From an uncultured archaeon (GTDB lineage Archaea; Altiarchaeota; Altiarchaeia; IMC4; QMZM01): a DNA stretch of 62,295 nt. The notes under the pieces were generated by a model that searched no databases, was not told the DNA's origin, and saw only the letters and a list, made by a program, of their open reading frames with translations. The translations under genes and the position numbers were made by a program. Shown piece after piece: positions 7,201-28,968 of this stretch; position 1 is the stretch's first letter, and the number at the start of each line of letters is the position of its first letter. The stretch is from assembly GCA_965602195.1 (NCBI GenBank), contig CBFCYF010000002.1:1-62295 (forward strand), given 5' to 3'.

Positions 7201-7775
7201 ACATCTATATCATCCCTCCCATTTACAGTGATTTCTATCTGCTCCCCAATAAGGGCGGGACCGCCAGATGGCCAGACAGCCAGGAAACCCCAGGGAGGAT
7301 TATCCTGTGATGCTACGCATACTCCGTTTTCGCATGTTTTTCCTGCGTTACAGTCAGAGTCAATGCGGCATTCTACTACATTAACATATACGCATTGTGG
7401 GTCTGTCCAACTCTCCTGGGAGCTACTATCAAGTACATAGCCACAGTACTCATATGTGCCTGTGGTCGACTCTGAGAAATCCCAAAATTTTATGCATTCA
7501 GTCTGAGTTCCAGAGCAAGATTGATGGTGCCAGGTGTTACCATACCATGCACTGACTTTAGCTACATCTATATCATCCCTCCCATTTACAGTGATTTCTA
7601 TCTGCTCCCCAATAAGGGCGGGACCGCCAGATGGCCAGACAGCCAGGAAACCCCAGGGAGGATTATCTCCTGCAACAGAGCCTGCCAGAATAACCGTAAT
7701 CAAAACCAAACATAGGAGTAAACTCTTCCATCTCATTTTACTTCCCTTCCCGTGGCTGATACTATATGACCTCAT
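4251..7775 (-). CDS. Giant secreted adhesin-like surface protein (1174 aa) with a tandemly duplicated domain and Thr/Ser-rich linkers
   Basis: N-terminal signal peptide (a more likely start is M14 at 7736). It carries two identical 121-aa domains (DNPPWGF...CVASQ) plus a divergent third copy, multiple Cys-rich modules, and DTTTTT(S/I), GDTTTTTT and STSSSTTSS linkers. Confidence 0.75.
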   Translation of the reverse strand: MRSYSISHGKGSKMRWKSLLLCLVLITVILAGSVAGDNPPWGFLAVWPSGGPALIGEQIEITVNGRDDIDVAKVSAWYGNTWHHQSCSGTQTECIKFWDFSESTTGTYEYCGYVLDSSSQESWTDPQCVYVNVVECRIDSDCNAGKTCENGVCVASQDNPPWGFLAVWPSGGPALIGEQIEITVNGRDDIDVAKVSAWYGNTWHHQSCSGTQTECIKFWDFSESTTGTYEYCGYVLDSSSQESWTDPQCVYVNVVECRIDSDCNAGKTCEDGVCVASQDNPPSGTLSYTPATPCVGQPMYITINGYDDIDMAKLEAEYGGLWHSHQCTGTSTTCSNTWTYVPPTEGTYHFSGKVYDSADQMAYTSPASTSFWIGECGTPPDCSIDIEFDKAEYCVGDEVVITLKFKHDGDLTDPSWRRVLVDGGDYSDRFTKKSEGIQEARFTMVATGTLEVDAEATIEGCEAEEENSVEVVYCGGDCSVEIKFDKDEYCEGDTFTATLRFRYDGKLTDPSWYRVILYNPYHPYPDGILVTNGFERVTTGVYEWSDDLGIPGTRRFVVEAIINGCEAEEENSFKVVDCDTTTTSSTTSSTSSSTTSSTSSSTTSSTSSSTTSSTSSSTTTTSDTTTTTSDTTTTISDTTTTISDTTTTTTSDTTTTTAIYHWVYVKDCTSGCCGDICCGDTTTTTTGDTTTTTTGDTTTTTTGDTTTTTTINTSECLDKKTMDNCLDITTCYWDQETDSCRVFDSTKQPCSDPDNGKDYYTQAHTYGFRKHAANERDARIRTGGKDACIGDKLREHYCVDTYYIETIDITCPTGYGCKNGACVIPTECGDLDNCHECLDNSCEWCDRELPWPLDVLESYCMDGGCSTITNCALGSCITDPVDCPGTPPTTTTTTISDTTTTISDTTTTTTSDTTTTTTIPADCHSHSNPTWVTDSKYNIKIIDLGCTQTGCAEGGGESQEALIEIREGPHCGEQFWIWIDLEMTPNTPNTGSCYEAHIFTTLYGADCGHVIRYLMEELDPCPECPTTTTTTISDTTTTTSDTTTTTPPDTTTTTISDTTTTTITPGKYSFNSFVSSPIEGGYRCNLDYENSAGEDIIILFLFKNTKTGKIVTVSTSVAPEGTGTASGIIYCSTVEPGDYEVSWRAYLESDPKLEDPIAWSKSTEVIDITCPVKP
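5647..5741. repeat. 24-bp coding tandem repeat x4 (GDTTTTTT)
   Basis: gttgtagtagtggttgtatctccc is repeated four times. Confidence 0.85.
5921..6030. repeat. 27-bp coding tandem repeat x4 (STSSSTTSS)
   Basis: The unit gatgatgtggtggatga(g/a)cttgtg is repeated; similar imperfect ggttgttgttgtggtgtcggagatg repeats occur at about 4596-4720, 5021-5115 and 5806-5900. Confidence 0.8.
6931..7656. repeat. Perfect 2 x 363-bp tandem duplication inside the giant gene
   Basis: Sequence 6931-7293 is repeated at 7294-7656 with no visible mismatches; it encodes the duplicated 121-aa domain. Confidence 0.9.
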
Positions 7776-7777
7776 TT

Positions 7778-8596
7778 TTATTCACACCTATATAACTTAG
7801 AATCGGCACAGCATGTGGCGCCGAAGGTCGGGCACTCACCTCCCTCAACGCATTGTGTTATCGTCGTAGTGGTTGCTGGAGTAGTTGAGGTAGTGGTTGT
7901 ATCCGTCGTCGTAGTGGTTGATGGAGTAGTTGAGGTAGTGGTTGTATCCGTCGTCGTAGTGGTTGCTGGAGCAGTTGTTGTCGTGACTACAGCTTCACAG
8001 TCCAGCAGGCATAACTCATAATAAACCTCGGCGGCCTCATAACATGCCTCTTTAAGTCCACTGCATACGCTGCTGGGATACCCTGCCCTAGTGCAGAGCT
8101 CGTATCTCCCATCACATGTTTCATGACGGTACTCTTTTGTGAGATCACATATCTCCGTGCATGAGGATGTCGCTTGGAGGATATTCACAATCGGCTCCCC
8201 GGAGTAGACTCCGGCATAAGAGCAGTCGGCTTCACCCATATCCTTATGTCCAAGATAGAATATAATGATGTCACTCACCTGCTCCCTGCTGAACCTGCTG
8301 GTGCCCACCGGTTTAGTAGTGTAGTCTCCCACCACCTCATGCACCATAGACCTGAAATCAGCATCTGAGGGGCAGGGAAACGGTTGGTCAGGAGGGCATA
8401 ACCCGACAAGCTCCTCGATTTCGCCGTCACTGAGGGAGGTGTATGTCTTCAGGTAATCCCTCATCTTGTCCTCCACCTCCCTATCAAAGCTCTGGTCAAA
8501 ATCAAAAGCCAAGGAGTTTGAGATCAGGAGCAATAGAGACAACAATATAGACATCAAAATAATTTTATTTCCTATGTTCTTCGTTATATTTAACAT
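7778..8596 (-). CDS. Secreted protein with a Thr-rich C-terminal linker and terminal Cys knot
   Basis: Signal peptide MLNITKNIGNKIILMSILLSLLLLISNSLA; a C-terminal 15-aa repeat TTTTTDTTTTSTTPS; it sits 2 nt upstream of the giant gene. Confidence 0.6.
   Translation of the reverse strand: MLNITKNIGNKIILMSILLSLLLLISNSLAFDFDQSFDREVEDKMRDYLKTYTSLSDGEIEELVGLCPPDQPFPCPSDADFRSMVHEVVGDYTTKPVGTSRFSREQVSDIIIFYLGHKDMGEADCSYAGVYSGEPIVNILQATSSCTEICDLTKEYRHETCDGRYELCTRAGYPSSVCSGLKEACYEAAEVYYELCLLDCEAVVTTTTAPATTTTTDTTTTSTTPSTTTTTDTTTTSTTPATTTTITQCVEGGECPTFGATCCADSKLYRCE
7861..7980. repeat. 45-bp coding tandem repeat of about 2.7 copies
   Basis: tcgtcgtagtggttg(c/a)tggagtagttgaggtagtggttgtatccg is repeated. 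Confidence 0.8.
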
Positions 8597-8663
8597 TTTT
8601 TTTCAGGTTAATGGGATGAGTAATCCTTTTAGGTGGTTAAGCTGCCTCCTCTGGTTCCATGAT

Positions 8664-8978
8664 CTAGCTTACAGTGAGACAGCATTTCTTCAGGTGTTTG
8701 CAGCACTCTTGTGGCGTCACCATGTTGAGTTCCCGGAGTTTTGTGTAGCATGTTCCGGCTTCGTCTGCGGCATTACATGCATCCACCTGGATGTCTGAGA
8801 GGGCTTCGGCTGGTGTCCCAGCTGGTAGCGTTGTTGTTTCCGCTGGCGGTTGCTCCGATGTCTCAGACGAGATAAGAACATATGCAAGTATACAGAGAAC
8901 TGCTATTCCGGTCACAGTAAATATCGTTTTACTCTCCATTCCACTACCTACTGTATTCTTTATTAATATATTATGCAC
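8664..8978 (-). CDS. Small secreted Cys-containing protein
   Basis: TM/signal segment IFTVTGIAVLCILAYVLISS followed by a Thr/Pro linker and 6 Cys; the start is probably the internal MESK. Confidence 0.45.
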   Translation of the reverse strand: MHNILIKNTVGSGMESKTIFTVTGIAVLCILAYVLISSETSEQPPAETTTLPAGTPAEALSDIQVDACNAADEAGTCYTKLRELNMVTPQECCKHLKKCCLTVS

Positions 8979-9017
8979 TAGACTACTATAAAAACATTTC
9001 GTTTGTTTAAGTTACAT

Positions 9018-9587
9018 CTAGATGGTAGTTGTGATGCAACAGTCACCGTAGGTTATGCAGCAGCATTCTACATAATCTACTCCGCAGAAATTATCCAGGC
9101 CGGCGGGAAAGCCGGCAAAGCATGTCCCCCAACCATCATGATCTTTGCATTTAGTTTCTGAATCTGGGCATGATGCCGCAAATACTGCCTCACAGTATTG
9201 GAGTGGCGGCACCCATCCCCCCTCATCACATCCAAAGGGAAGTATGTCTGTATTATCAATTAAATAATTAATCACTGGCAGCGCAACCAAAACTATGATC
9301 ACCCCTATGAAGATATGTGAAATCCTGCCCCGTATATCATTCCTCTGCTCTATATCTTCAGTCGTCATATACTCTATGCCGTACACGATCAAAGCCAGGG
9401 TGGCTAAAAGGCCTATGATCAACCAGATAGTGTCCAGGAGAAAGCAGACTATGTCATTAATTCGGCGTATAATCATATCCACATCAGAGAGTGTTGTGGT
9501 TGGCGTCTGTGCCCAGACTGGGGAAATCAAGGCTGACACCATCAATAATATGAGTACACTCTTCCATAATCTAATCTGTAATCCCAT
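9018..9587 (-). CDS. Hairpin-motif membrane protein paralog 4 with a Cys-rich C-terminal ectodomain
   Basis: Signal peptide; hairpin LIVYGIEYMTTEDIEQRNDIRGRISHIFIGVIIVLVAL aligns with the hairpins of 1514-3003; C-terminus CCCITYGDCCITTTI. Confidence 0.6.
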   Translation of the reverse strand: MGLQIRLWKSVLILLMVSALISPVWAQTPTTTLSDVDMIIRRINDIVCFLLDTIWLIIGLLATLALIVYGIEYMTTEDIEQRNDIRGRISHIFIGVIIVLVALPVINYLIDNTDILPFGCDEGGWVPPLQYCEAVFAASCPDSETKCKDHDGWGTCFAGFPAGLDNFCGVDYVECCCITYGDCCITTTI

Positions 9588-13107: not shown

Positions 13108-13283
13108 GGGCCCGTGGCTCAGCATGGTTAGAGCGCTCGACTGATAATCCCGATGCAGTCATAAGACACCCTAAGGAACCCTCCTTTTTGTCTGTGAACT
13201 GTCCACAGGGAATACCTAGTGTTCCTTGTACCCTCCAGGGATTAGTAATCGAGAAGTCCGGAGTTCAAATCTCCGCGGGCCCA
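13108..13283 (+). tRNA. tRNA-Ile(GAT) with a ~101-nt intron at the canonical 37/38 position
   Basis: Exon 1 GGGCCCGTGGCTCAGCATGGTTAGAGCGCTCGACTGATA; exon 2 ATCGAGAAGTCCGGAGTTCAAATCTCCGCGGGCCCA. The 7-bp acceptor, D, anticodon (CTCGA/TCGAG, loop CTGATAA) and T arms all pair. The intron is about 13147-13247. Confidence 0.8.
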
Positions 13284-13776: not shown

Positions 13777-13888
13777 CAACTGCCACAGCCAGTTGACATC
13801 TGGGTGCTACATTCGCTACGCTCAGCAGCACTCAACTGCCACAGCCAGTTGACATCTGGGTGCTACATTCGCTACGCTCAGTAGCACT
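13777..13888. repeat. 2 x 56-bp tandem direct repeat upstream of tRNA-Arg
   Basis: caactgccacagccagttgacatctgggtgctacattcgctacgctcag(c/t)agcact is repeated with 1 mismatch. Confidence 0.85.
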
Positions 13889-13917
13889 TAACAAACAAAA
13901 AAAACAACGTAACGCCC

Positions 13918-13991
13918 GCATAGGGTAGCATGGATATCCTGGGGGATTGCGGATCCCCTGACTCGGGTTCAAATCCCGGTGCGGGCAAACA
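13918..13991 (+). tRNA. tRNA-Arg(GCG)
   Basis: GCCCGCA acceptor pairs with TGCGGGC; anticodon arm GGGGA-TTGCGGA-TCCCC gives anticodon GCG; T arm TCGGG-TTCAAAT-CCCGG; discriminator A. Confidence 0.8.
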
Positions 13992-14147
13992 CTTGTGGGC
14001 TCGTTTCCCAACGACACACTGCGGTTTCAATACTTAAGCTTCGTTGAAAACCGTTGATCCCTGTTTAGGCTAATTTTTTCCGGCAACAAATCCCGGCACA
14101 TGTCCAGCTGATCTACCAGTTAATTCATCAGATAATCCCTTTAAAAG

Positions 14148-14900
14148 TTATTCATCGTTATCGCAGATGTTGTTAACATTTTTATCCAAGCAGCAGCCTC
14201 TGCCGTGGCGGATGTAAGGTGGATTGCAGACGACTTTCTTCGCTTCCGGTTCCTCTCTGCTAAACCCAATGAGACGCTTCATCTCCCCCACCACCGACTT
14301 GACGATGTTGACAACCTCGCCGACGGCCTCCTTCACAAACCCAGTTGCTCTCTCAATGATTCCCCGCTCTTTTTCCGGCGACTCACCGGCTCCCGCCAAC
14401 AACCCCTCCACCTGCACAAACTCTCCCTCCAGCTTCATAGACTCCAAGACTGGCTGAGCCTCCCAAGCATATCCGATGAGGTCCTCCTCCTGAGCGGAGA
14501 CAGTCGCCAGATACAACCGACCCCCAGCTGTGAAGACGTCATTGATGACGTAGACGTCAGGGTCGTTGGGGAGGTTAGACATGAAACGCATTGTTTTCTG
14601 GCCCGCAACATCCCCTGAGGGCATGTCCCTCAACAGGGCTCCAAACGTCTCAAGTTGCTTGCGGTACAAACGAATGGCGTCGCTGCCGCTTCCATTAAGA
14701 GGCACCCACGTCGCTGACAAGAGGACATCTCCAGGTTTTTCTGTGTGGGTGAGGGAGAGCATGTTATCTGTTTTGCCGCTGATACGCCAGCGGTTGCTGT
14801 ACTCCAAGGTGATGCCGTTGGTTTCGGCGGTGTGGGTTGCGGCACCTGATGTGAACAACAACACAAACACCACCCCCAAAATCATCTTCTTTAAGTTCAT
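14148..14900 (-). CDS. Secreted hypothetical protein in the GC-rich island
   Basis: Signal peptide MNLKKMILGVVFVLLFTSGAATHTA; C-terminal Cys cluster; a 4-nt ATGA overlap with the upstream gene. Confidence 0.6.
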   Translation of the reverse strand: MNLKKMILGVVFVLLFTSGAATHTAETNGITLEYSNRWRISGKTDNMLSLTHTEKPGDVLLSATWVPLNGSGSDAIRLYRKQLETFGALLRDMPSGDVAGQKTMRFMSNLPNDPDVYVINDVFTAGGRLYLATVSAQEEDLIGYAWEAQPVLESMKLEGEFVQVEGLLAGAGESPEKERGIIERATGFVKEAVGEVVNIVKSVVGEMKRLIGFSREEPEAKKVVCNPPYIRHGRGCCLDKNVNNICDNDE

Positions 14901-17647
14901 TTTGATGTTGGAATAAATGTTTGAATAACACTATTTGCGACATTGTGAACATCACGGCTTCCCTCACGAGTCTTGACGTCGCCGGGTCTCCCGTTCAAGT
15001 ATCCCACCCATGTGTTGACGACTGCCGTATCCCCCCCGGGTGATGTGCGCAACATGCCGATGTGCTGAAGCTTGTCGTTGTAGTCTGCGATGTGGCGAAG
15101 CATGTGGCCCTGGGACTGGGCGAGCGTTTGCTGGCTCTGAAGCATCTGGTTGAAGGCCCTACGTGCGCCGGCATCGTCGCCGTCCCTAATGGCTTGGGCT
15201 GCCTGTTGCTCGTATCTTAGTGTCTGGTCGGCTTGGGACAGCACATTACGCCTGCGGGGGACGTTCTCCTGGCTGAAGGCGCCGACTCGGCTCCTGCTGC
15301 TCTGGACTTCACTCACATAGTTGGTGTTGCCCTTTACGTTCCCCTTAAAGTCGTTGAAGTTGCGGGTTGTGCTGGAGGCGCGGGCTACGCCGACGTTGTT
15401 GGCTACGTTGTTGTCGCGGTTTTTCTGCCCCCTGATCGTGTTCTCCAGGCGGTCGAGGTTGTCCATGCCGTAGGCGCCGCGCATCAAAGCCTGCTGGTTG
15501 AGGCCGATGAACTTGAAGACGCCGCTCATCGCGTTCATGGTTCCCTCAATAGCGCCGGTTGCCTCGTAGCCGAGGAAGTGGTCGCTTATCTTGATGATTT
15601 CGTTGTACATCTTATTCTTCATGGGGCCTGTCATCTTCTGGGCGATGTATTGTTTGATTGCTGTGGTCCCCGCCACGTAGACTGAGTTCGGGACGTAGTT
15701 TTTGATGGCGTCGGTCACTATCTTCTCATATCCCTGGATTGCGTAGAGGCTGTCGATGACTGCGGCTCCGGAGCGGGTCCGGTAGATGGACTTACCTATC
15801 TTGTCTACTCTAAACGCAGCCGAAAGTCCCCCTTGGAGCGTCGACTGTGAGGTCAAGCCGAGGCGCTGGGCCAAGCCCAGGTTTGCGGCGCGGCCGAGCT
15901 GCGCCGACGGCCCGAACGTGAGAAAGGTGTCCCAAGCGGAAAACTGGCGTGAAACAAAGTCTGCTTCGTTGTACTTAAGAATCTCTGTGTCGAAGTAGTC
16001 GCGTCCGATGTCGATGTTATACTGGGTCTTGTCGCCGTTGCGTATTGCGTTGACGTCTACGTTTCTGAAGGCGTCCCAGATGCGCTGTCTGAGCTTCTGG
16101 GCTTGGTCGTCTGTTAAGTCCTTCCCGTAGTGTTCCTTGATCACCTCCTTCAGTCTGTCCTTGCTGAACTTGTTCATTTCCTCAAAGGTGACCCCCTGGC
16201 GACGCAGGTCTTCTACCAGCTTGATGCCTGCTATCTGGCGGGTGGCCTCGTCCACCTGGAGGTCGGCCATGTCCCCGAGTATGTCGTAGTAGCCAGCTAG
16301 TGCCCCTATACTCTCTCCTACGCCTGTGGTGGCGACGTCGATGAGGATGTTGCCGATGCCCGCCTCGCCGTGGCTGTTGAGTTTGTCGTTGAATAACCTA
16401 GCGGTTTTGCTCATGTCCACTGAGAGGTGGTCACGGATGCGCTGCAGGTATTCGAGTTCGACGTTTTGGATGATGCGATTGGCAAAGAGGTTGTCTGGCT
16501 CTTCCTCAAGGATCTTGCGTGCGCTGTGGAGGGCCATGCGGGTGTCGCCTTCCATCTGCTGGCGGAAGACGTTTAGGGTGAGGGCGTCGACTCGGGCGCG
16601 TGGGTTGGCTGTGAGCTTGGGGAGCATCTCGTCGAACTTGTGGGTGGCTCCGCAGCGGAGCGTTAAACTCAGGTGGGTCATGTCGAGCTCTGTGCGGAGG
16701 AGGTTCAGGTAGTTAGAGTATTCATCACGGTGTTTGTAGTCGAAGAAGCCTCCATCCATGTTGTCGAGGATTTCATAGAGCTTTGAGGCTTGTCGCTCGA
16801 ATTCTTCAAGCAACTTGTCCTGCTCCTCACGGAGACGTTCAAGGTCCTTTTTGGCTTCTTCTTTATCTTCCTCTGATCCGTGCTTGAGCATCCATTCAGC
16901 GTCCCTGATCTGGGAGAGGATGTAGTCTGCTTCAGCGTAGAGGTCTTTAATGTCTTTGAGGAATCGGTTCTTCAAGGCTAGGTAGTCGACGACGTTGCGG
17001 GTGATGGCCCGTACTATCTTCTGTTGCTCGGTTTCCTCGGTCTCGACGCAGACGCATTCGTTGGGTTCGCTGTCTTCCTGCGAGAACTCGGTGCCTGGTT
17101 CCCGCTTGCAGACGTCCTCACATGATTCGCAGCCGTCGGCTGTCATCTGCCAGCCTACTTCGCAGATGCCTGTGCAGTCCCCTGAGTCGTCGATGACGCC
17201 TATCATATGTTCGCCTTTCTTCCGCCAATATTTGTCACATTCATCCTCTTCTTCGCTGTCGTATTCGCGGGCGGTGGATGTGGTCGGCGGCGAGGTCAAG
17301 GTCGTCGTCTCGCCGGGGCAGGGTTCATCGGGGAGGACGCATTTAATGAGGTAGCTGCCTGGACAAAAGTTGCCGCACTTCTTGCGGTCGAAGCTCTCGT
17401 AGTCTACAGGTCTTCTACAAGCTTTTGAGTACTTGTCCTCTTCCGGGTCGTCGATGTTGTCATTGGCAGCGCAGATGCAGGCCCGAGTGTAGCTCCAGTG
17501 GGCGTGGGGGCGGTTGTTGCAGTCCTCCTGTACACATCCCACACCGCTCATACGCTGCCAAGTAAAATCGGGAGGGCATTCGACTGCAGTAACACAGTTG
17601 GCCAACAAAAACAGGGAGAGCACGGTTACATAAAGCCTTTCTGTCAC
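14897..17647 (-). CDS. Large secreted protein (916 aa) with a Cys-rich N-terminal domain and long alpha-helical/coiled-coil region; GC-rich island
   Basis: Signal peptide MTERLYVTVLSLFLLANCVTA; 20+ Cys in the first 200 aa; the rest is helical. Local GC is about 55-58%, against about 40% elsewhere. Confidence 0.65.
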   Translation of the reverse strand: MTERLYVTVLSLFLLANCVTAVECPPDFTWQRMSGVGCVQEDCNNRPHAHWSYTRACICAANDNIDDPEEDKYSKACRRPVDYESFDRKKCGNFCPGSYLIKCVLPDEPCPGETTTLTSPPTTSTAREYDSEEEDECDKYWRKKGEHMIGVIDDSGDCTGICEVGWQMTADGCESCEDVCKREPGTEFSQEDSEPNECVCVETEETEQQKIVRAITRNVVDYLALKNRFLKDIKDLYAEADYILSQIRDAEWMLKHGSEEDKEEAKKDLERLREEQDKLLEEFERQASKLYEILDNMDGGFFDYKHRDEYSNYLNLLRTELDMTHLSLTLRCGATHKFDEMLPKLTANPRARVDALTLNVFRQQMEGDTRMALHSARKILEEEPDNLFANRIIQNVELEYLQRIRDHLSVDMSKTARLFNDKLNSHGEAGIGNILIDVATTGVGESIGALAGYYDILGDMADLQVDEATRQIAGIKLVEDLRRQGVTFEEMNKFSKDRLKEVIKEHYGKDLTDDQAQKLRQRIWDAFRNVDVNAIRNGDKTQYNIDIGRDYFDTEILKYNEADFVSRQFSAWDTFLTFGPSAQLGRAANLGLAQRLGLTSQSTLQGGLSAAFRVDKIGKSIYRTRSGAAVIDSLYAIQGYEKIVTDAIKNYVPNSVYVAGTTAIKQYIAQKMTGPMKNKMYNEIIKISDHFLGYEATGAIEGTMNAMSGVFKFIGLNQQALMRGAYGMDNLDRLENTIRGQKNRDNNVANNVGVARASSTTRNFNDFKGNVKGNTNYVSEVQSSRSRVGAFSQENVPRRRNVLSQADQTLRYEQQAAQAIRDGDDAGARRAFNQMLQSQQTLAQSQGHMLRHIADYNDKLQHIGMLRTSPGGDTAVVNTWVGYLNGRPGDVKTREGSRDVHNVANSVIQTFIPTSK

Positions 17648-17969
17648 ATCACACCACCTCGTTTAAAATATTTATTTTCTTTCCCTCCTTAAATAGCTGA
17701 AAGTAGTGTCCAGCCTTCACACCAGCTCATCATCTGATTTTTTGAAATCTCCATCATCATACCTATTATCTATTATTATTTAAAGAAAAAAAATCGAGTT
17801 TACAGCAGAGCAAGAATATGAGGTTTGAAAATCACTTGTTTCTCATCCTCCGGCTCCAGATTACCTCACCTATTAAGTCCTAAAGTGGTAGCTATCAAAC
17901 AAACAAAAGGTTTTTATAGAAGCGGGTCTAATTATTTACAGTTGTAAAAAAGTTAAACGACAATCTTAA

Positions 17970-18548
17970 ATGAAAAGATTCAGACTTATTGTTGACGGGG
18001 ATGTAACTGGTGTTAGATATAGAGATTATGTGCAAAAAACAGCGTTAAAGCACAAACTTCACGGATCTGTTGAAAACATGAAGGACCGAACAGTGGAGAT
18101 AATCTGTGAGGGGGGAGACAAGAACATTCACAACTTCATCGAAGAACTAAAGGATGCTGAGGGGGAAGGGAGATGGCATATTGAAGGCTATCCTAATGCT
18201 GAGGTGAATAAAGTCCAGGCCATAGAAGAGAAGTCAACAGGTAAATTCACAACATTTGAAATAAAACATGGCAGCATGGAAGAGGAACTAGGTGACCAGA
18301 TGGGTGCGTCATACAATATTCTGCTCGATTACGCTTCATCTATAAGAAAAATAGATGAAAAATATGGCGTCATATCTGTAAACATGGAGGCGTCAGCCAA
18401 GGCAATAACATTACTCAGTGGGACATTAACAAAACTTAACACCACTCTTGAGGATGATAGGAAAGCTATGAAGTCTGACCGGGAGATGATGAAAAACCTA
18501 GCTGAGAAGATAGAGAAAAGCATAGCGGCCCTTTCTAGTAGAAAGTAA
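17970..18548 (+). CDS. Acylphosphatase-like domain protein with a coiled-coil C-terminus
   Basis: N-terminal RLIVDGDVTGVRYRDYVQKTALKHKLHGSVENMKDRTVEIICEG resembles the acylphosphatase fold motif (V.G.VQGV.FR...A..LGL.G.V.N..DG.VE). Confidence 0.5.
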   Translation: MKRFRLIVDGDVTGVRYRDYVQKTALKHKLHGSVENMKDRTVEIICEGGDKNIHNFIEELKDAEGEGRWHIEGYPNAEVNKVQAIEEKSTGKFTTFEIKHGSMEEELGDQMGASYNILLDYASSIRKIDEKYGVISVNMEASAKAITLLSGTLTKLNTTLEDDRKAMKSDREMMKNLAEKIEKSIAALSSRK

Positions 18549-18614
18549 TATCGTATTTCTCCTCCTCCAGCTCCAAGATTGCCTCCTTTCAGTCAGAAGT
18601 ATCCGCTGAATCAA

Positions 18615-19556
18615 TGTACTATCCCCCCACATATGTTACACTTTTGATTTTGAGTGTAAATAAGTATGAGGTGGGTTAGTATGAAGCTTTCAGTAAAACA
18701 GAGGTTTTGGATTGTTAAGCGGCGCTTGCAGGGGGTGAGTGTCGTTTTTATCTGCCGGCAGGCAGGGATTAGTAGGCGTACCTTTTATTATTACTGGCTT
18801 AGGTTCCAGCGTGAGGGGTGGAAGGGTCTTGGAATAAAGTCCCGCAGGCCTCATACGATCCATCGGACACCCCAGGAGACGGTTGATTTAGTAATTGAGT
18901 TGCGTGAAACCAAGGGGTGGGGCCCTTCAAGGATTGAAGGATACTTACATCAGAACAAACCGGAAGGGGTTAAGTTGGTTGGCCACAACACGATATATAG
19001 AATCATCAAGCAGGCAGGTCTTAACAACCCACTTGATAAGCCCCGGAAGACTTGGGGTAAAAAACGTTTCCAGAGAAGCAAACCAAACGAGATGTGGCAG
19101 GCAGACTGGAAGCTTACAAGAGAAGATGAATGGATGATTACCTATCTAGATGACTATAGTCGGTTCATACCCTCAAGCCAGGTGTTTGAAAATGCAAACA
19201 CAGAGAATGCACTAGCTGTGCTGGAGGAAGCAATGGATGAACACGGCACACCCAAGCAGATACTAACCGATCAGGGAGCTCAGTTCTACACCTGGCAGGA
19301 AGATGGAAAAACCAAATTCACAAAATACCTGGAACGCAAGGATATACAGCACATAGTAGCAAGCAAGAGAAGACCAACAACGATAGGTAAAGTGGAGCGC
19401 TTCCACAGATCTTATGAAGAAGAAGCTTGGCGATACTCTAACCATGGGATGTACATACAACATTACAACTACGAACGTCCACATCAGGCGTTAGATTATT
19501 TAACGCCTGCAGGCGTATATTTTAAAGAAGTGTAACATATCTCAGGGGATAGTACA
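18615..19556 (+). mobile_element. IS481-family insertion sequence (942 bp)
   Basis: 12-bp perfect terminal inverted repeats TGTACTATCCCC (18615-18626 and 19545-19556) starting with TGT; a single HTH+rve transposase ORF; flanked by a 16-bp direct duplication gtatccgctgaatcaa (18599-18614 and 19557-19572). Confidence 0.8.
18666..19535 (+). CDS. IS481-family transposase (HTH plus DDE integrase core)
   Basis: N-terminal HTH (GISRRTFYYYWLRF); DDE residues in WQADW, YLDDYSR and KVERFHRS. Confidence 0.8.
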   Translation: MRWVSMKLSVKQRFWIVKRRLQGVSVVFICRQAGISRRTFYYYWLRFQREGWKGLGIKSRRPHTIHRTPQETVDLVIELRETKGWGPSRIEGYLHQNKPEGVKLVGHNTIYRIIKQAGLNNPLDKPRKTWGKKRFQRSKPNEMWQADWKLTREDEWMITYLDDYSRFIPSSQVFENANTENALAVLEEAMDEHGTPKQILTDQGAQFYTWQEDGKTKFTKYLERKDIQHIVASKRRPTTIGKVERFHRSYEEEAWRYSNHGMYIQHYNYERPHQALDYLTPAGVYFKEV

Positions 19557-19635
19557 GTATCCGCTGAATCAAATCAAATATTTATATATCTGTCGCCCCA
19601 TTATTCTATGGACATAATTAATTTTCAGAATAGAG

Positions 19636-20331
19636 GTGATTAAAAAAAAAATGGAGTATAAGATAAGAGGAACAACCCTACAGGTTGCGGACATCGAATT
19701 AGAAGAAGGAGAATCAGTATACACTGAATCCGGAGGCATGGCATGGATGTCCCCCAACATCAACATGGAAACCAACACCAAAGGAGGACTCATGAAAGGC
19801 CTGGGAAGAATGTTTGCAGGAGAATCACTATTCATGACCACCTACACCTGCAACAGCGGCACCGCTATGATCTCCTTCGCCAACGAATTCCCAGGAAAAA
19901 TAATCCCTATGGAACTAGCTGAAGGAGAAACCATCATCGCCCAAAGAGACGCCTTCATGTGCGCCCAATCATCCGTAAACCTCGCCGTACACTTCAGAAA
20001 AAAAATAGGGGCAGGACTATTCGGAGGAGAAGGCTTCATCATGCAGAAACTAACCGGGCCCGGAATGGTGTTCATCGAACTAGCAGGAGAAGTCACAAAA
20101 TACAACCTCGAAGAAGGCCAAGTACTGAAAGTAGACCCCGGACACATAGGAGTATTCCAGCCCACAGTAGAATTCGACATAACAAGAGTGAAAGGAATGA
20201 AAAACATCCTATTCGGAGGAGAAGGACTATTCCTTGCAACACTCAAAGGCCCCGGCAACGTATGGCTACAATCCATGCCCATCCCCAACCTAGCAGCAAG
20301 AATAGCTAGATTCATACCCGCAAAAGGATAA
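19636..20331 (+). CDS. AIM24/DUF124 (TIGR00266) family protein
   Basis: Repeated GEGLF/GPG...V.L motifs and a length of about 230 aa are typical of DUF124. Confidence 0.45.
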   Translation: MIKKKMEYKIRGTTLQVADIELEEGESVYTESGGMAWMSPNINMETNTKGGLMKGLGRMFAGESLFMTTYTCNSGTAMISFANEFPGKIIPMELAEGETIIAQRDAFMCAQSSVNLAVHFRKKIGAGLFGGEGFIMQKLTGPGMVFIELAGEVTKYNLEEGQVLKVDPGHIGVFQPTVEFDITRVKGMKNILFGGEGLFLATLKGPGNVWLQSMPIPNLAARIARFIPAKG

Positions 20332-20340
20332 AACATAGAC

Positions 20341-20583
20341 ATGGATATCCTAAGCACAGCGGCGGCGATACTGGCCGCCCTATTCCTTCTTATATTCCTG
20401 CTGGGAATCCTCGCCGCCCTATTCACGCCGGTGATGAGCCTAATAACCCTCCTACTAGATCTCATACTGCCCCCAATAGCATCACTCTACTACAAAATCT
20501 TTAAGAAAGAAGATGATACAGGAAAAAAGCAAGGACCTAAAGCAACAAATTACTCAATAAAACAGGGAGAGGAAATCAAATAA
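20341..20583 (+). CDS. Small membrane protein
   Basis: Two hydrophobic helices; begins 10 nt after the AIM24-like gene. Confidence 0.4.
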   Translation: MDILSTAAAILAALFLLIFLLGILAALFTPVMSLITLLLDLILPPIASLYYKIFKKEDDTGKKQGPKATNYSIKQGEEIK

Positions 20584-21522
20584 TTACTCCCCACTCAACC
20601 TCTTCCACAACGCAGATGCCATGAAGGGCAGAATTAATGTAGCATCACCGTCCACTGTTACGAATTTAGCATCCTCCTTCAGTTTACCCCAGGAAATGGC
20701 CTCACTCATCCTGGCCCCCGATAAACTACCGTCATACTCGGATGCTGTAGTAACATACACGGAGTAATCCAGGCCTTCATTAAACTGATTCCACCAGATG
20801 GTGTGGTGCTTGGAGATCCCGCCCCCCACCATAAGGGCGCCCGTCTTATCCGCCCCGAACACGATATCTGCAAGCCTCTGCTCATCAAGGAACAGGTTAA
20901 TCTTGAAATCCCTGTGGGTCTGCCAGAAAAGCCACAGCTGGAAGCCAACCGACCCATCAAACATCCCCGGAATAAACACTGGAATCTGATTCTTCCACGA
21001 CCAGTATATTATCGATTCCTCCCGCCTCTCCACATCCCCAAGCATCCTGCCAATCTCCCATACAAGCTCATACCCTGAAACCTCCTTTCTCTTAGAGTAG
21101 ATATCCAACAACATAGGCTGTATCTTCTCCTCAAGGATGATGCCGTAGGACTCATTCGGGATCAGGACGTTGCCAAGCCTGTTAATCCCCCTCCCATGCA
21201 GGTCCCGGTCATCCATAGAAAAGCTTCCATGATAATAATCCTTCCACAACCTAGCCAGATCATGATCAAGTGTCCCTGCGGTTGTTACCACCACATCAAA
21301 CAGTTTCTCCTTCACAAGATCCCTGATAATCCCCCGGGTCCCTGTGGCTGTGATGCAGGCTGGGAAAGAAAGAAATTTCACGCACCCCTCCGCCTGCATT
21401 TTCTCAAGAATATCAACTCCCCGAGCCAGCTTCCTGGCAGTGAAGCCACCACAATAGCTCATATTCCTCACCAGGGCGTCTACCTCGTTCTCTTCCATGG
21501 AGAGGTCTTTAACTGGATCCAT
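20584..21522 (-). CDS. dys: Deoxyhypusine synthase
   Basis: YWSWKNQIPVFIPGMFDGSVG, GGGISKHHTIW and EYDGSLSGARMSEAISWGKLK match eukaryotic/archaeal DHS. Confidence 0.85.
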   Translation of the reverse strand: MDPVKDLSMEENEVDALVRNMSYCGGFTARKLARGVDILEKMQAEGCVKFLSFPACITATGTRGIIRDLVKEKLFDVVVTTAGTLDHDLARLWKDYYHGSFSMDDRDLHGRGINRLGNVLIPNESYGIILEEKIQPMLLDIYSKRKEVSGYELVWEIGRMLGDVERREESIIYWSWKNQIPVFIPGMFDGSVGFQLWLFWQTHRDFKINLFLDEQRLADIVFGADKTGALMVGGGISKHHTIWWNQFNEGLDYSVYVTTASEYDGSLSGARMSEAISWGKLKEDAKFVTVDGDATLILPFMASALWKRLSGE

Positions 21523-22786
21523 TATCAGAGTTCTCTATCGCTACCTCATCCACCACAGGCTGAAACATGAAATATTTCTCCACATACTTTTTCATCTCAT
21601 CATCTGAGATACAGGATGTTCTCCCCTCCTTATCATAGAGTTTATGGATGTCTCTGTGTATGGCAGTAATCCTCGAGTCTCTCTTATCTATGCTCACCTT
21701 TATCCCCATCAATTTCTCTGCCACCTCCTCCACCCTCTTCATTATAACCGCCGTTCCAGATGAATCCCCCACCATCAATTTCCTCTCACCCCCCACCAAT
21801 TCCGGGGGAAATGACTCGTAGGTGAAGGGGTTTTTAATCACGCCTGCCGTATGGATTCCGGATTCATGAGCGAAAATGAAGTCACCAACAACAGCCTTAT
21901 TTCTGGGGACATGGACTCTCACCTCCTTCTCCATATATCTTGCGAATTCCACCAGATACTCGAGATTGTATCTCCTGAAACCCTTAACTCTCTGAGCGAA
22001 AAACAATAGTATCTTCTCCAGTTCAGCGTTCCCCGCCCGCTCCCCTATCCCGAGAAAGGTTAGGTTAGACCAGTTGGCTCCATGCCAGTAAGCAGAAAGT
22101 GAATTAGCAATCCCCAGACCAAAGTCGTCGTGGACATGGGTTTCTATATTCCTGACATTGATTTTCTTCAGTTCCTGCACAATCCGTGGAATCCCATAGG
22201 GGAGGCCGGCTTCATTAAATGGGACGCCCAGGCCCAGTGTATCACATAATCTGATAACCGCATCAGGGGATCTCTCCATGATTTTCTCGGTGAATGGAAG
22301 GAGAAAATCAAAGTCTGCTCTTGTCATATCCTCAAGATGGCATCTCACCCTTAAACCATGGTCTAAGGCGTAATCCAGTGCCTTCAGGTATCTGCTTTCT
22401 GCTTCCTCTGCGTTTTTGAAGCCTATTTTGTCGAACATATGGGAGTCTGATACCGACATAAGTATTCCGGTTTCCTCCATCCCGTCCATCGCAAGCACCA
22501 AGTCGATGTCTTCCTCCCTGGCTCTGGCCCACCCAGTTACCTCAGGGAACTCATATCCTCTATCCAGCATCTCCCTAGCCACCAGCTTGTCTCTGTCGTT
22601 GTAGAGAAAGCACTCCATCTTCTCGATCCCTATCTTACTCAGGTATTCATAGATCTCCAGTTTGTTTCTCCTGGTCATCACAATACCTGGCATCTGGGCT
22701 CCATCCCTGATGGTGCTGTCTGATACCTTTATCTTTTGACCCTGTGGCAATTCCAGCTTCGGCATCTCCTCATAGCTTCGATACAT
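21509..22786 (-). CDS. HMGL-like (DRE-TIM metallolyase) enzyme; isopropylmalate/homocitrate/citramalate synthase family
   Basis: DSTIRDGAQ (compare DTTLRDGEQ), HxH metal motif HVHDDFGLGIANSL, and GERAGNA. Confidence 0.6.
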   Translation of the reverse strand: MYRSYEEMPKLELPQGQKIKVSDSTIRDGAQMPGIVMTRRNKLEIYEYLSKIGIEKMECFLYNDRDKLVAREMLDRGYEFPEVTGWARAREEDIDLVLAMDGMEETGILMSVSDSHMFDKIGFKNAEEAESRYLKALDYALDHGLRVRCHLEDMTRADFDFLLPFTEKIMERSPDAVIRLCDTLGLGVPFNEAGLPYGIPRIVQELKKINVRNIETHVHDDFGLGIANSLSAYWHGANWSNLTFLGIGERAGNAELEKILLFFAQRVKGFRRYNLEYLVEFARYMEKEVRVHVPRNKAVVGDFIFAHESGIHTAGVIKNPFTYESFPPELVGGERKLMVGDSSGTAVIMKRVEEVAEKLMGIKVSIDKRDSRITAIHRDIHKLYDKEGRTSCISDDEMKKYVEKYFMFQPVVDEVAIENSDNGSS

Positions 22787-22835
22787 TTTCAGTTAAACCA
22801 ATATATATTCGAATCCAAGTTGAAAAATGAGTTGA

Positions 22836-23714
22836 TCATCTCCTCATCCTGCCGCCTATGATGTCGACGAAGGAATCGAAGAGGGGGGCGTCGGTTCTCA
22901 CAGAAAAAAAATCCACTCCCGCTTCGTTACAGATTCCCTGGATACTGGAGATGTGATCCTCCAGCCTCCTCCTGTATTCCCTCTTGAAAGCAGGGCTCAG
23001 GTAGGTTCTCCTGGAATCAAGGCTCTCCATATCCTCAAAATCTATGTCATCCCCCCACATCAAATCAATCTCGCCCGGATCAAGAACCTGAATAAGAACC
23101 GCCTCCTCCGAGTATCTTGCCACCCTATAAATACCCTCCCTAAGGGAATCAATAGGCTCTATGAAATCAGATATTATCACAATAAATGATCTTGATTTAA
23201 TCATCTTCGTGTACTCCTCAATACACACTGCAAGATTTGTATGGCCTTCCTGCTCTGATCCGTTAAGTACCTCAATCATCCTGAAGAAGTGATTCTTCCC
23301 CTTCCTTGCCGGCATCACCTCCATCACCTTATCTGAATAGAGAGCTGAAGAGAATTTCTCGTAATTATTCAATGCTATATAAGCAAATCCTGCCGCAATA
23401 CTCCCACCGTAATCAAATTTCCTCATCCCCGACGCATAAAAATCCATACTGGCACTGGAATCAATCAGAATCCTTAATATCATATCTTTCTCCTCCTCAA
23501 ATCTCCTGATATAAAGCTTTTCCGTCCTCCCATAAAGCCGCCAGTCAATAGTCTTAAAGTCATCTCCCGGATAGTATCCCCTGTGATCTGATAAATCCGT
23601 GCCCCTTCCCTGCTTTATCGATCTTCTGCTGCCCATATATATGTCTGAAACCCTACGTTTCACCAGGAAATTTAATCTCTTCAACGCTTCCAAGAAGCTG
23701 GAATCAATAGCCAT
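22836..23714 (-). CDS. DUF58 (vWA-like) protein, MoxR partner
   Basis: Immediately downstream of MoxR with a 2-nt gap; typical length and ILIDSSASM vWA-like motif. Confidence 0.6.
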   Translation of the reverse strand: MAIDSSFLEALKRLNFLVKRRVSDIYMGSRRSIKQGRGTDLSDHRGYYPGDDFKTIDWRLYGRTEKLYIRRFEEEKDMILRILIDSSASMDFYASGMRKFDYGGSIAAGFAYIALNNYEKFSSALYSDKVMEVMPARKGKNHFFRMIEVLNGSEQEGHTNLAVCIEEYTKMIKSRSFIVIISDFIEPIDSLREGIYRVARYSEEAVLIQVLDPGEIDLMWGDDIDFEDMESLDSRRTYLSPAFKREYRRRLEDHISSIQGICNEAGVDFFSVRTDAPLFDSFVDIIGGRMRR

Positions 23715-23715
23715 C

Positions 23716-24741
23716 CTATTTCTTCTTTATGATTCTCTCAATAACCTCGTCAGCAGAAATCCCCCTCCTCTCAGACTCAAAGTTCAGGATAATCCTATGT
23801 CTCAGGACCGGGAAAGACATCGCATTTATGTCCTCCTTCGTCACATAATTCCTTCCGTTGATTAACGCCCTGGCCTTACTTGCCATAACAAGACCTATGG
23901 ATGCTCTGGGTGAAGCACCGTAATCCAGATACATTTTAGCAATTTTACTATTTTTGGGTCTGGTTTTGGTTATTATATCTATGGCATAATTCTTGTTATC
24001 ATTGGATATGGGCATCTTCCTTATCAATTCCTGGATTGCGAGCAGATCATCCCTGCCCATGATTTCCTCAGTATCCGGAAATTTTTCTCCGGTGTAGAGA
24101 TCAACGATCTTATATTCATCATCCCTTGTGGGGTAATTAATGATGATCTTCAGGAGGAACCTATCTAACTGTGCCTCCGGCAGCGGATATGTTCCCTCCA
24201 TCTCAATTGGATTCTGGGTAGCTAGGACAAAGAATGGTTTATCCAGTTGATGAGTGGATGTTCCTATCGAGACCTGTCTTTCCTGCATGGCCTCCAATAA
24301 AGCTGATTGGGTTTTGGGTGTCGCCCTGTTGATCTCGTCTGCAAGAAGGATGTTGGTGAATACAGGACCCTTCTCAAACTTGAAGAACTTCTTCCCGTCT
24401 TTCTCCTCAACGATGTATGTTCCGGTAATATCCGAGGGCATCAGGTCTGGTGTGCATTGTATCCTCTTAAACCTGAGATCCATTATACCTGCCAGGGTAC
24501 TTACCATAAGGGTTTTTCCAAGACCCGGGAATCCCTCCAATAGGATATGGTTTCCAGTGAACACGGCGACGAGAATCTGCTCAATAACATCATCCTGTCC
24601 CACAACCACTTTACCTATCTCATGGACGATACCTCTGTAGATATCCTTCATCTTAGGATAGATATCTTTCAAATCTTTATCCGCCTCATCATCTTTTTTT
24701 ATCTTCTCTATATGACCCCAAATACTTTCCCCTATTTTCAT
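23716..24741 (-). CDS. MoxR-family AAA+ ATPase
   Basis: Walker A LLEGFPGLGKT; Walker B LLADEINRA. Confidence 0.85.
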   Translation of the reverse strand: MKIGESIWGHIEKIKKDDEADKDLKDIYPKMKDIYRGIVHEIGKVVVGQDDVIEQILVAVFTGNHILLEGFPGLGKTLMVSTLAGIMDLRFKRIQCTPDLMPSDITGTYIVEEKDGKKFFKFEKGPVFTNILLADEINRATPKTQSALLEAMQERQVSIGTSTHQLDKPFFVLATQNPIEMEGTYPLPEAQLDRFLLKIIINYPTRDDEYKIVDLYTGEKFPDTEEIMGRDDLLAIQELIRKMPISNDNKNYAIDIITKTRPKNSKIAKMYLDYGASPRASIGLVMASKARALINGRNYVTKEDINAMSFPVLRHRIILNFESERRGISADEVIERIIKKK

Positions 24742-24746
24742 TTTTT

Positions 24747-25652
24747 TTACTTCTCCAATACCTTCTGTAGCGATTCAAAATATGTTCTTATTAACTCCCG
24801 GTACTCCACAGGTTCTTGTTCGGGAGTCTCATAACCTTTACCCTCAACCTGCGGAAATTCCTTATCTACCTTCTTAAAGGTGGACTCCTTTATGTCGATC
24901 CTGCCTCCATACTCCGGGTGCATCTCCATCTTAATATCCTGCCCGGATATCTTTGCAGAAGATGGTTCCCCGAATATCTCAGGATCTGGGGAAGCTCCGG
25001 CTCCACCTCCTTTATCTGTTTGTGGCCCCTCGTTCATCCCAGGCTCCTCACCCCCCCCCTCACCGCCTACTTTCTCCTCCTCCTCTCCGGTGCTATAATT
25101 TCCCACATCAAACTCCTCCGTCCCCCACTTATCTCCGTTTGTAATTGTGGGAATACGTTCCTTGATGGAATCCCAGATATTACCGTCCAACTCTAAACCA
25201 AGAATAAATCCCTCAAAAGCTAGGATGTCCATGCCCACAATAGTGAATGTGAGAAAAACAATTATGAAGCTTTTCACCACAAATCTCTTAGTAGCTAAGA
25301 ATGAGGAGTATCTAATCTTATCTATACGTTTGCCCACATCAGAGGTTAAATCCTTGATTATTACATTCGTCCTCCCCCTGTTGTCGTAGGCTGTCTGAAG
25401 TCTCTCATCCAGGGAGGGATATTCCTTCACTACTATCTCTATCACCTGTCTGTTATGAACCCTGTAAAGCGCGTGAGCGATGAGATACAAAACGGAGGGG
25501 GCAAGTGAGTAGTATGCGGGGACTTCAAGGAGTTCCAGGACTATGAATAAGGCAAGGAAGACTATTATAGCATTCACAATCACCTCAAATACATGTATCT
25601 CCCAGCAGGCCTTCCCTATCTCTGTAAGTTTCCTGGTCACCGAATTTTTCAC
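24747..25652 (-). CDS. Membrane protein with a Gly/Glu-rich C-terminal tail (MoxR operon)
   Basis: Four TM helices and an acidic low-complexity tail. Confidence 0.5.
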   Translation of the reverse strand: MKNSVTRKLTEIGKACWEIHVFEVIVNAIIVFLALFIVLELLEVPAYYSLAPSVLYLIAHALYRVHNRQVIEIVVKEYPSLDERLQTAYDNRGRTNVIIKDLTSDVGKRIDKIRYSSFLATKRFVVKSFIIVFLTFTIVGMDILAFEGFILGLELDGNIWDSIKERIPTITNGDKWGTEEFDVGNYSTGEEEEKVGGEGGGEEPGMNEGPQTDKGGGAGASPDPEIFGEPSSAKISGQDIKMEMHPEYGGRIDIKESTFKKVDKEFPQVEGKGYETPEQEPVEYRELIRTYFESLQKVLEK

Positions 25653-25653
25653 A

Positions 25654-26382: not shown

Positions 26383-26427
26383 TTTAGTATACCATTACTT
26401 ATTTTGTAGTTCATCTAATTATTTATT

Positions 26428-27231: not shown

Positions 27232-27290
27232 ACAAGAAATCCGCTTTTAAAACAAAAAATCTAAGATATTAACCCTCATTTTTTCAGAAG

Positions 27291-27668
27291 ATGAATCTAC
27301 TAAAATTTAGGCAGGGATATAAGGAGTGGGAGATATCCTATAATGTTGAACTTGATTTTGAATACACCGCTGATCTGGAAAAAAAGATAACCCACATAGT
27401 ACTGCATCAACTATCCCCCAAAAGGAGTGTCAGGATTCCCTGGGGGATATTCCAACCTTATCTATGTGGAAAGGAGGGGGTTTATGTTGATGCCTCCGGT
27501 CTGAGGATTAAGTCGGCTGCCGGGAAAATAGAGGTCTCTGATTCCAGGTTTCTTAATATAAAAATACATGAGGATCAGAGAAAAGCTATTATGGTGGCTG
27601 AGAAGAGGGCAGTGGAGAATATCTCCACATCCGTGGAGAATATACTGACGAGATTTACGGGGAGGTAG
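27291..27668 (+). CDS. Hypothetical protein
   Basis: ORF only; abuts the next gene. Confidence 0.35.
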   Translation: MNLLKFRQGYKEWEISYNVELDFEYTADLEKKITHIVLHQLSPKRSVRIPWGIFQPYLCGKEGVYVDASGLRIKSAAGKIEVSDSRFLNIKIHEDQRKAIMVAEKRAVENISTSVENILTRFTGR

Positions 27669-27669
27669 T

Positions 27670-28937: not shown

Positions 28938-28968
28938 ATTGAATAATTAGGTATATATTTTACATAAA

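Follow-up and report, generated by a model that had tools for sequence, protein, structure and literature searches.

A GC-rich gene pair, probably acquired recently beside a tRNA-Arg gene of an uncultured Altiarchaeota archaeon, encodes two predicted exported proteins of uncharacterised families

Introduction

Islands and integrative elements associated with tRNA genes are recognised by a foreign base composition, presence or absence among strains, an insertion point at the tRNA 3′ end, exported accessory cargo and insertion sequences (IS) nearby. Here, we describe a locus that resembles them in these respects: a GC-rich pair of genes at positions 14148–17647 of a 62,295-nucleotide stretch of DNA (hereafter, the window; contig CBFCYF010000002.1 of assembly GCA_965602195.1) from an uncultured archaeon of the Altiarchaeota. 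The pair, which we call the cassette, encodes a large protein of 916 amino acids (aa) and a partner of 250 aa. A preliminary description had taken it for a horizontally acquired island of two genes for secreted proteins, and for a candidate effector or toxin-like surface factor.

Two further kinds of described systems are relevant to this locus. In polymorphic toxin–immunity modules, a common head is found on unrelated C-terminal parts, a small, coupled and co-inherited gene follows downstream, and the module is mobile; the locus is similar in these points, and also in that its partner has been seen solely with one C-terminal region of the large protein (residues 655–916). In the Mog1–PsbP superfamily (PsbP, DcrB, DUF1795), furthermore, we find a possible likeness to the partner, which appears to have a small alpha/beta-type domain of ~135 aa and matches these proteins weakly but collinearly at both ends. 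DcrB is a periplasmic lipoprotein, and the bacterial partners are also lipoproteins. Eag proteins, which have the PsbP fold and serve as chaperones of effectors of the type VI secretion system, bind hydrophobic helices of the large effector encoded alongside.

Results

Composition of the gene pair and its tRNA-Arg flank

The gene pair and its immediate surroundings comprise the following features, in which coding sequences are open reading frames (ORFs) as called by program.

13914–13987, plus strand: tRNA-Arg, anticodon GCG (ARAGORN; Rfam, 53.7 bits), the left edge of the variable segment
14148–14900, minus strand: partner gene, 250 aa
14897–17647, minus strand: large gene, 916 aa, with a GTG start
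17648–17969, no strand assigned: AT-rich spacer of 32–37% GC, recognised by composition, with an AT-rich box and a Shine–Dalgarno (SD)-like sequence on the minus strand

The two genes overlap by 4 nt (ATGA on the minus strand), and the partner stop codon lies 160 bp from tRNA-Arg, or 157 bp when the three bases past the tRNA are counted; both the overlap and the 157-bp distance had been given correctly in the preliminary description. On the minus strand, the spacer has the AT-rich box AAATAAATATTTTAAA and, just ahead of the GTG at which the large gene starts, the SD-like GAGGTGGTG, and it likely carries putative expression signals of the operon.

The gene pair is the strongest compositional outlier of the window. 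Its GC content is 0.552 as opposed to 0.449 in the remainder, so that the anomaly described earlier is real but stands against a background well above the ~40% first stated. The GC content at third codon positions (GC3) is 0.720 in the large gene and 0.673 in the partner gene (z-scores of 4.6 and 3.6), while the 53 other ORFs have a mean of 0.506 (standard deviation 0.046) and reach at most 0.617; none of them, therefore, comes near the pair. When 3.5-kb windows were compared (104 controls), the island was extreme in GC (0.547 vs 0.451 ± 0.017, maximum 0.487) and was outside the control range in both tetranucleotide measures, namely the L1 distance (0.468 vs at most 0.376 elsewhere) and the correlation of usage (0.278 vs at least 0.471 elsewhere). 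A local drop in GC at 16700–16999 corresponds to a Lys/Glu-rich coiled-coil stretch of the large protein.

Could genes native to this genome have reached such values by expression-linked codon bias or by amino-acid composition? The host lineage does have its own family of proteins with the Cys-rich head module of the large protein (see below), which shows that similar proteins are native to it, and nothing else speaks specifically for this explanation. Indeed, the GC surplus is confined to third codon positions, the GC content at second codon positions (GC2, 0.39) is as in other genes of the window, and no other window gene exceeds a GC3 of 0.62. Other head-module genes in Altiarchaeales-like genomes (46.6–46.7% GC) are near native in GC, with GC3 of 0.49–0.60, so that the surplus of GC is a property of this cassette in particular. 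Also, the genes are absent from a relative that is 95.5% identical. A native origin is thus contradicted by the evidence and is very improbable.

The chromosome itself is of Altiarchaeales type: topoisomerase, deoxyhypusine synthase and other housekeeping proteins, together with the small island protein, fall into 90%-identity clusters with a metagenome-assembled genome (MAG) of a Candidatus Altiarchaeales archaeon. Directly upstream of tRNA-Arg, we noticed a tandem 56-bp unit in two copies (98% identical; 13777–13888), of which at least one copy is present in the relative L024 described below. A further match to the tRNA model (13108–13283, plus strand, 176 nt, 51.9 bits), not reported by ARAGORN, is presumably an archaeal tRNA with an intron.

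An empty site in a close relative

L023 and L024, two contigs that come from other samples, match 19556–29773 of the window at 95.5–96% identity. In L024, the identity of 95.5% extends over 6.5 kb, and the region upstream of the AIM24 gene then meets tRNA-Arg across ~40 nt; upstream of AIM24 the order is a single 17-mer, ~31 nt, a T-run, “aac” and tRNA-Arg. L024 is hence without window positions 13991 to ~18577, i.e., both GC-rich genes, the AT-rich spacer and a gene for an acylphosphatase fusion, and is without the neighbouring IS (18615–19555) as well. The following features delimit the segment.

13991–14147, no strand assigned: left intergenic part of the inserted segment, absent in L024 and 92.8% identical in L025/L026
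17970–18548, plus strand: acylphosphatase-domain fusion gene, 192 aa, GC 0.41 (Pfam Acylphosphatase, E = 6e-17)
18549–18577, no strand assigned: right junction zone; homology to the empty site resumes at ~18575–18580 in the alignment to L024
18598–19572, plus strand: IS481-type insertion including its direct repeats (Pfam rve, HTH_32, LZ_Tnp_IS481)

Alignment of L024 to both junctions of the window places the left breakpoint 3 nt past the 3′ end of tRNA-Arg. The variable segment (4.6 kb) contains no gene besides the pair and the AT-rich acylphosphatase-fusion gene; the pair thus lies inside a larger island than had been described. The acylphosphatase-fusion protein has a helical tail and resembles a PHROG without assigned function (E = 3e-10); its gene, which varies among strains together with the cassette, adjoins the cassette at no other locus and is hence regarded as outside the conserved cassette.

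In a second strain (L025/L026), at 92.8% identity to the window, the DNA runs from the last part of the large gene through the partner and the intergenic region as far as the 3′ end of the tRNA, of which it keeps 14 of 16 nt. Beyond this tRNA-end fragment follows unrelated DNA with no tRNA, and the left junction falls within the last 14–16 nt of the tRNA. The left junction is, therefore, at the tRNA 3′ end in two different contexts, which hints at site-specific recombination there.

In proposing the IS481-type element as the vehicle of the cassette, one would have to account for its 17-bp direct repeat, which is unusually long and encloses the IS alone; this candidate was rejected. Because the duplication brackets the IS alone and only a single copy of the 17-mer, with no IS, is present in L024, the element is a separate simple insertion. 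It has 29-nt inverted ends (18615–18643 and 19528–19556) and a transposase gene (18666–19535), and related short contigs break at this element.

The breaks in these contigs, and the origin of the contig from a metagenome, might suggest that the assembly had joined Altiarchaeales DNA to that of a GC-richer organism. Altiarchaeales sequence is, however, present on both flanks, the large gene carries a head module of Altiarchaeota type, and the cassette end, the intergenic DNA and the junction at the tRNA end are reproduced in the independent assemblies ERZ23498622 and SRR13892599. An assembly chimera is contradicted by these observations and can be given very little credence.

Several points weigh against a recent acquisition. 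A search of the window for the tRNA end gave a single copy even with 2–3 mismatches allowed, leaving no att-type repeat; no other repeat flanking the segment was found in the repeat search of the window, and no integrase or recombinase was found among the ORFs and Pfam matches of the segment. Of the classical features of a tRNA island, accordingly, the junction at the tRNA 3′ end is present and the integrase and the flanking tRNA-end repeat are missing in the window. Furthermore, the segment is compositionally mixed (55% and 41% GC), the nearest sampled relative is only 58% identical and hence points to no donor, and a single relative has the empty site, so that a deletion in L024 is formally conceivable.

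Such a deletion would mean that the segment is ancestral at this site and that its contrast in GC stems from an earlier transfer or from a bias particular to these genes. Besides the single empty-site contig and the lack of an integrase and of flanking repeats, the cassette of the second strain, at 92.8% identity, is in its favour in showing that the segment is not brand new. On the other hand, a GC3 of 0.72 stands unameliorated in a genome of 0.51 and goes with a foreign tetranucleotide signature, the junction in L024 is 3 nt past the tRNA end as an insertion point would predict, and the cassette of L025 has a different left-hand context. We thus consider the ancestral alternative improbable. 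The empty site in L024 strongly supports a recent horizontal gain of the segment, which we regard as very probable; the acquisition first read from composition and tRNA proximity is borne out by the compositional outlier, by the lack of the genes at the corresponding site of a relative with ~95.5% identity, and by the occurrence of the pair in unrelated neighbourhoods elsewhere.

A survey of 2.9 million viral contigs returned no homologue of the large protein, of the partner or of the acylphosphatase gene, and the L025 flank had no exact counterpart there.

The pair is a conserved operon in archaea and bacteria

The 916-aa ORF is identical to a deposited protein of 916 aa, while a separate lookup of the exact sequence returned no record. 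A search of 5.8 billion proteins gave only four full-length relatives of the large protein, which are thus very rare, and all four are directly followed by a homologue of the small protein, with the 4-nt overlap in the archaeal versions. Further loci with both genes, from Dehalococcoidia and others, were added by scans of genomes and metagenomes. At every locus with enough sequence the partner is directly downstream of the large gene (in L005, after a gap of 330 nt), and the pair has been seen in four archaeal lineages and in several bacteria, which are Dehalococcoidia wherever the host can be named.

The neighbours of the pair differ among loci (L001, L002/L003, L004/L006, L005, L010 and L011–L017) and are particular to each lineage: ArsP with rhodanese, HMGL with Rnf, DJ-1 with ParE, PIN and rve fragments, or a tail-sheath gene. 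In L006 (uncultured archaeon SRP141376_co4_203, which is GC-rich), the region directly downstream of the cassette (6237–8004) is rich in mobile elements, having an RHH/ParE toxin–antitoxin pair, rve transposase fragments and a PIN-domain gene. In L010 (3952–6397; Dehalococcoidia MAG, CBDEVT010000001.1), a lone tail-sheath gene is directly upstream of the large-gene homologue on the same strand, and a gene for a Ras-family small GTPase is just before it.

In GC-rich hosts, the GC content of the cassette is near that of the host (L004, 0.62; L005, 0.60; L010, 0.55; L015, 0.67), and in L002 it equals that of the host (~0.47). In L001, the cassette is again a GC-rich island (0.59 vs 0.38–0.46); it deviates, therefore, in two low-GC hosts. 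Neighbour joining on the shared region places the four archaeal-type sequences in one clade (100% bootstrap) beside the bacterial-type sequences. GC-rich cassettes make up three of the four archaeal ones. Most simply, the source would be a GC-rich archaeon, with a recent arrival in the lineage of the window.

The large protein combines a Cys-rich head with a helical body

The large gene encodes the following regions, all on the minus strand.

17585–17647: GTG start and predicted signal peptide, residues 1–21 (hydropathy maximum 1.80 at residues 5–23, followed by VTA/VE, with the slash at the cleavage point)
17309–17584: Cys-rich N-terminal head module, residues 22–113 (VECPPxFxWQRMSGVGCVQ...CPGE)
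17033–17257: second Cys-rich module, residues 131–205, with seven Cys residues and preceded by a Thr/Ser/Pro-rich linker
14900–17032: all-helical body, residues 206–916, conserved in the family and predicted as all helix from residue 207

As read from their sequences, both proteins of the cassette have an N terminus like that of a signal peptide, in which a charged n-region precedes a hydrophobic stretch and a cleavage-type motif of small residues, and these are kept in the homologues; the earlier view that both are secreted is consistent with this. The Cys-dense N-terminal module and the helical, coiled-coil body were likewise well recognised: all but one of the 20 Cys residues of the large protein fall within residues 1–200, and from residue 207 onward only helix is predicted.

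The head module is found in ~25 database proteins overall, of which the named ones are nearly all from Altiarchaeota; extension of the family gave 11 further proteins, mostly fragments. No paralogues of either protein or of the head module were found in the window. The module tops at least four differing architectures, whose C-terminal parts consist of EGF-like Cys repeats, a cohesin domain (precomputed Pfam) with a dockerin-like C-terminal motif (read from the sequence), C-terminal transmembrane anchors, or a type of ~515 aa that has its own small exported gene downstream. An example of the last is P0007 (516 aa; L018, 10001–12180, on an Altiarchaeales-like contig), whose gene shares 4 nt with the next one downstream, which encodes an unrelated protein of 210 aa with a signal peptide and a C-terminal transmembrane helix. 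A head-module protein with a small exported partner may hence be a recurring arrangement, as these gene orders suggest.

The head module of the large protein is 80% identical to that of P0004 and 44–49% identical to those of P0002 and P0003, while its body is closest to P0002 and P0003. Because head and body have different nearest relatives, the large gene reads as a recombinant mosaic. Also, the second Cys-rich module is kept in P0002–P0004, and unrelated sequence takes its place in P0005 and the bacterial relatives; in the latter, the Cys-rich head is replaced by a beta-rich domain with a Pro/Thr linker or by a TPR-like region.

The body is 38–63% identical to the four full-length relatives. 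A profile of it found 76 cluster representatives among 1.84 billion proteins, of which ~10 are close and full-length and ~60 are proteins of 1100–2100 aa that share only residues ~255–655, with E values from 1e-51 to 1e-4 and the motifs HGExG, TTG, DEA..Q.AGI, NxDV, DxG+xYF and GPSA. These distant relatives have the same central region as the large protein but different N- and C-terminal domains. Of those we read, several have signal-peptide-like N termini and some have N-terminal HEAT repeats (HEAT/TPR N termini), and in some a C-terminal PI3/PI4-kinase-like domain scores 25.3 bits, just below the Pfam cut-off. P0040, P0041 and P0049 (1180–1366 aa) have a signal-peptide-like N terminus, the central body region and a PI3/PI4-kinase-like end (DRHxxN ... 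IDHG), and these kinase-like proteins appear to be uncharacterised. At the one such locus examined (P0040, L021/L022), a gene for a PDZ protein is next and there is no small partner; indeed, the partner is seen only with the close family that shares residues 655–916.

With an alignment of five sequences, AlphaFold2 gave a mean predicted local distance difference test (pLDDT) score of 54; with 32 sequences, the score was 67.6 and three helical regions were well defined with pLDDT >90, namely residues 205–425 (a coiled-coil hairpin and TPR-like helices), 455–560 and 730–865. Residues 560–730, which are Gly/Ala/Ser-rich amphipathic helices, were predicted with low confidence. Nothing above noise was returned for either protein by Pfam, NCBIfam, PADLOC and PHROGs, a sequence-profile search of the PDB with the body gave only chance-level matches to TPR, 14-3-3 and S20 proteins, and a search of the literature found no relevant work.

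The best fold matches of the large protein in BFVD are tape-measure proteins, and in Dehalococcoidia L010 the tail-sheath gene is directly upstream; one might suspect, therefore, that the protein is left over from a virus or a contractile tail-like particle. Those matches are, however, not significant (E >= 4e-3, TM score <= 0.13), and no other tail genes are beside the cassette at any locus. A predicted signal peptide on the large protein, the lack of relatives on the viral contigs and the lack of PHROG matches also contradict such an origin, which we regard as the least plausible of those considered.

The partner protein

All 12 partners compared have in common a domain of ~135 aa, and about a dozen members of this family are known. 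The bacterial partners have a lipobox and a Pro/Thr linker, those of L004/L006 have a C-terminal transmembrane helix and a Zn ribbon, and those of the window and L001 have an amphipathic helix and a short tail with four Cys residues.

Three matches that are weak but collinear point to a PsbP/DcrB-like fold: PNSL1 in the PDB (E = 0.01); Pfam PsbP_2, which is matched by three of the 12 members at a best E of 0.007, the window protein itself giving no match; and an hhalign comparison with a DcrB-domain protein (E = 0.005, with a probability of only 7%). We take the PsbP/DcrB-like fold of the partner as a lead rather than as demonstrated membership.

Other features of the window

Apart from the cassette, the window encodes on the minus strand (37311–42602) a protein of 1763 aa with a complete alpha-2-macroglobulin architecture (MG2, MG3, bait region, A2M, thioester TED and receptor-binding domains) at native GC. 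Also on the minus strand (3622–9587), a protein of 189 aa matches TrbC/VirB2, a pilin family of type IV secretion systems (33.6 bits, cut-off 26.6). Its gene adjoins ORFs of 272, 1174 and 215 aa that could not be annotated, and among these the 1174-aa ORF stands out by its GC2 of 0.53 and a marked AT skew.

Discussion

An acquired segment carrying an operon for an exported effector and its binder is, in our view, the best overall explanation of this locus, with a probability of roughly 0.55. The segment (~13991–18577) would have entered an Altiarchaeales chromosome right at the 3′ end of tRNA-Arg, and the most probable source of its GC-rich core (14148–17647) is an archaeon of higher GC content in which a head module of Altiarchaeota type was already present; the operon family is common to archaea and Dehalococcoidia bacteria. 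The first gene is predicted to give a Sec-exported protein of ~100 kDa with a disulfide-rich, lineage-specific head, a Thr/Ser linker and a helical body made of a coiled-coil hairpin, TPR-like helices and Gly/Ala/Ser-rich amphipathic helices. The second gene, which would be translationally coupled to the first through the ATGA overlap, is predicted to give a small exported protein near the membrane, probably with a PsbP/DcrB-like fold. We infer that the two proteins would form a complex outside the cytoplasmic membrane, where the large protein would act on an external target such as another cell or envelope and the partner would be its cognate binder, an immunity-type protein or a holder.

An effector with a cognate binder is favoured as the mechanism because the module is accessory and mobile, because the architecture of head-module proteins is polymorphic, because the partner has so far been seen only with the C-terminal region 655–916, and because the Eag proteins of PsbP fold hold effector helices. 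Even so, we put this mechanism forward tentatively, at less than even odds, and several observations count against it. Conservation across the superfamily falls mainly on structural residues (Gly, Leu, Ala, Pro and Tyr), no hydrophobic segment of the body exceeds 1.3 on the Kyte–Doolittle scale, no signature of a toxin, an enzyme or a pore-forming protein was found in the large protein, and fold searches with it return only generic helical bundles and TPR proteins. Furthermore, the PsbP-like assignment of the partner is based on three sub-threshold matches, and the neighbour-joining tree leaves the direction of transfer between archaea and bacteria unpolarised. In the initial proposal of a secreted, toxin-like effector, therefore, secretion fits, and the toxin part found no counterpart in a toxin domain, an enzyme signature or an informative fold match.

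Alternatively, the same acquired operon might be non-antagonistic, with the large protein serving on the cell surface as a scaffold or adhesin that presents a Cys-rich distal head on a helical stalk and the partner as its anchor. The large protein indeed has no anchor of its own, partners are lipoproteins or tethered by a transmembrane helix, and TPR-like and coiled-coil elements would suit the binding of proteins. The head module also tops cohesin-containing, dockerin-like, EGF-like Cys-repeat and membrane-anchored proteins, and surface adhesins often vary among strains. Dehalococcoidia and archaea, moreover, have protein envelopes free of murein. Against a scaffold, no adhesin or S-layer domains were found with Pfam, the tail of the window partner is no obvious membrane anchor, and sporadic presence with transfer across domains fits conflict systems at least equally. 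This alternative is possible, nearly as likely as the effector.

A wider proposal would be an archaeal system of polymorphic exported effectors, in which the head (VECPPGFxWQRMSGVGCVQ...CPGE) serves for export, attachment or targeting and is followed by swappable cargo, each with its own small exported, membrane-tethered cognate; the window pair would have been exchanged across domains with Dehalococcoidia and have moved recently between archaea. We regard this proposal as speculative and rather unlikely in its full form. If true, it would be an archaeal Sec-dependent analogue of bacterial toxin–immunity cassettes, made from uncharacterised families. The narrower proposal of an effector and its binder, if true, would point to Sec-dependent systems of inter-cell antagonism or adhesion common to archaea and wall-less Chloroflexota, while a surface scaffold would bear on how such envelopes are built. 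Under either of these two, the pair is a two-protein target for tests of expression and interaction. The locus is, in any case, a clean sequence-level example of how an uncultured lineage of archaea recently gained a cassette that has relatives in Bacteria, and it defines two protein families without annotation as well as a rare archaeal Cys-rich head that is recombined onto differing extracellular proteins.

In comparison with known systems, finally, alpha-helical pore-forming toxins of the ClyA and XaxAB/YaxAB type have a specific helical-bundle fold and a hydrophobic insertion element, neither of which was found in the large protein, and with phage tail tape-measure proteins it has no significant similarity in fold or sequence and, apart from the lone tail-sheath gene of L010, no viral or tail-gene context. 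The partner differs from the PsbP/DcrB/DUF1795 proteins in that all its matches are under the family thresholds, and from the Eag chaperones, which are cytoplasmic, in that it is exported. From polymorphic toxin–immunity modules, the pair differs in having no recognisable toxin domain, in having Sec signals only with no dedicated secretion apparatus, in the export of the partner itself, and in a body that is well conserved rather than hypervariable. Unlike typical tRNA-associated islands, the segment is only 4.6 kb long, mixed in composition, and without an integrase or a tRNA-end repeat at the far junction; the 14-of-16-nt tRNA-end fragment beside the cassette in strain L025 is the sole att-like trace. 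It is nonetheless a genuine acquired island of a known general kind, and what it carries is a two-protein module from uncharacterised families.

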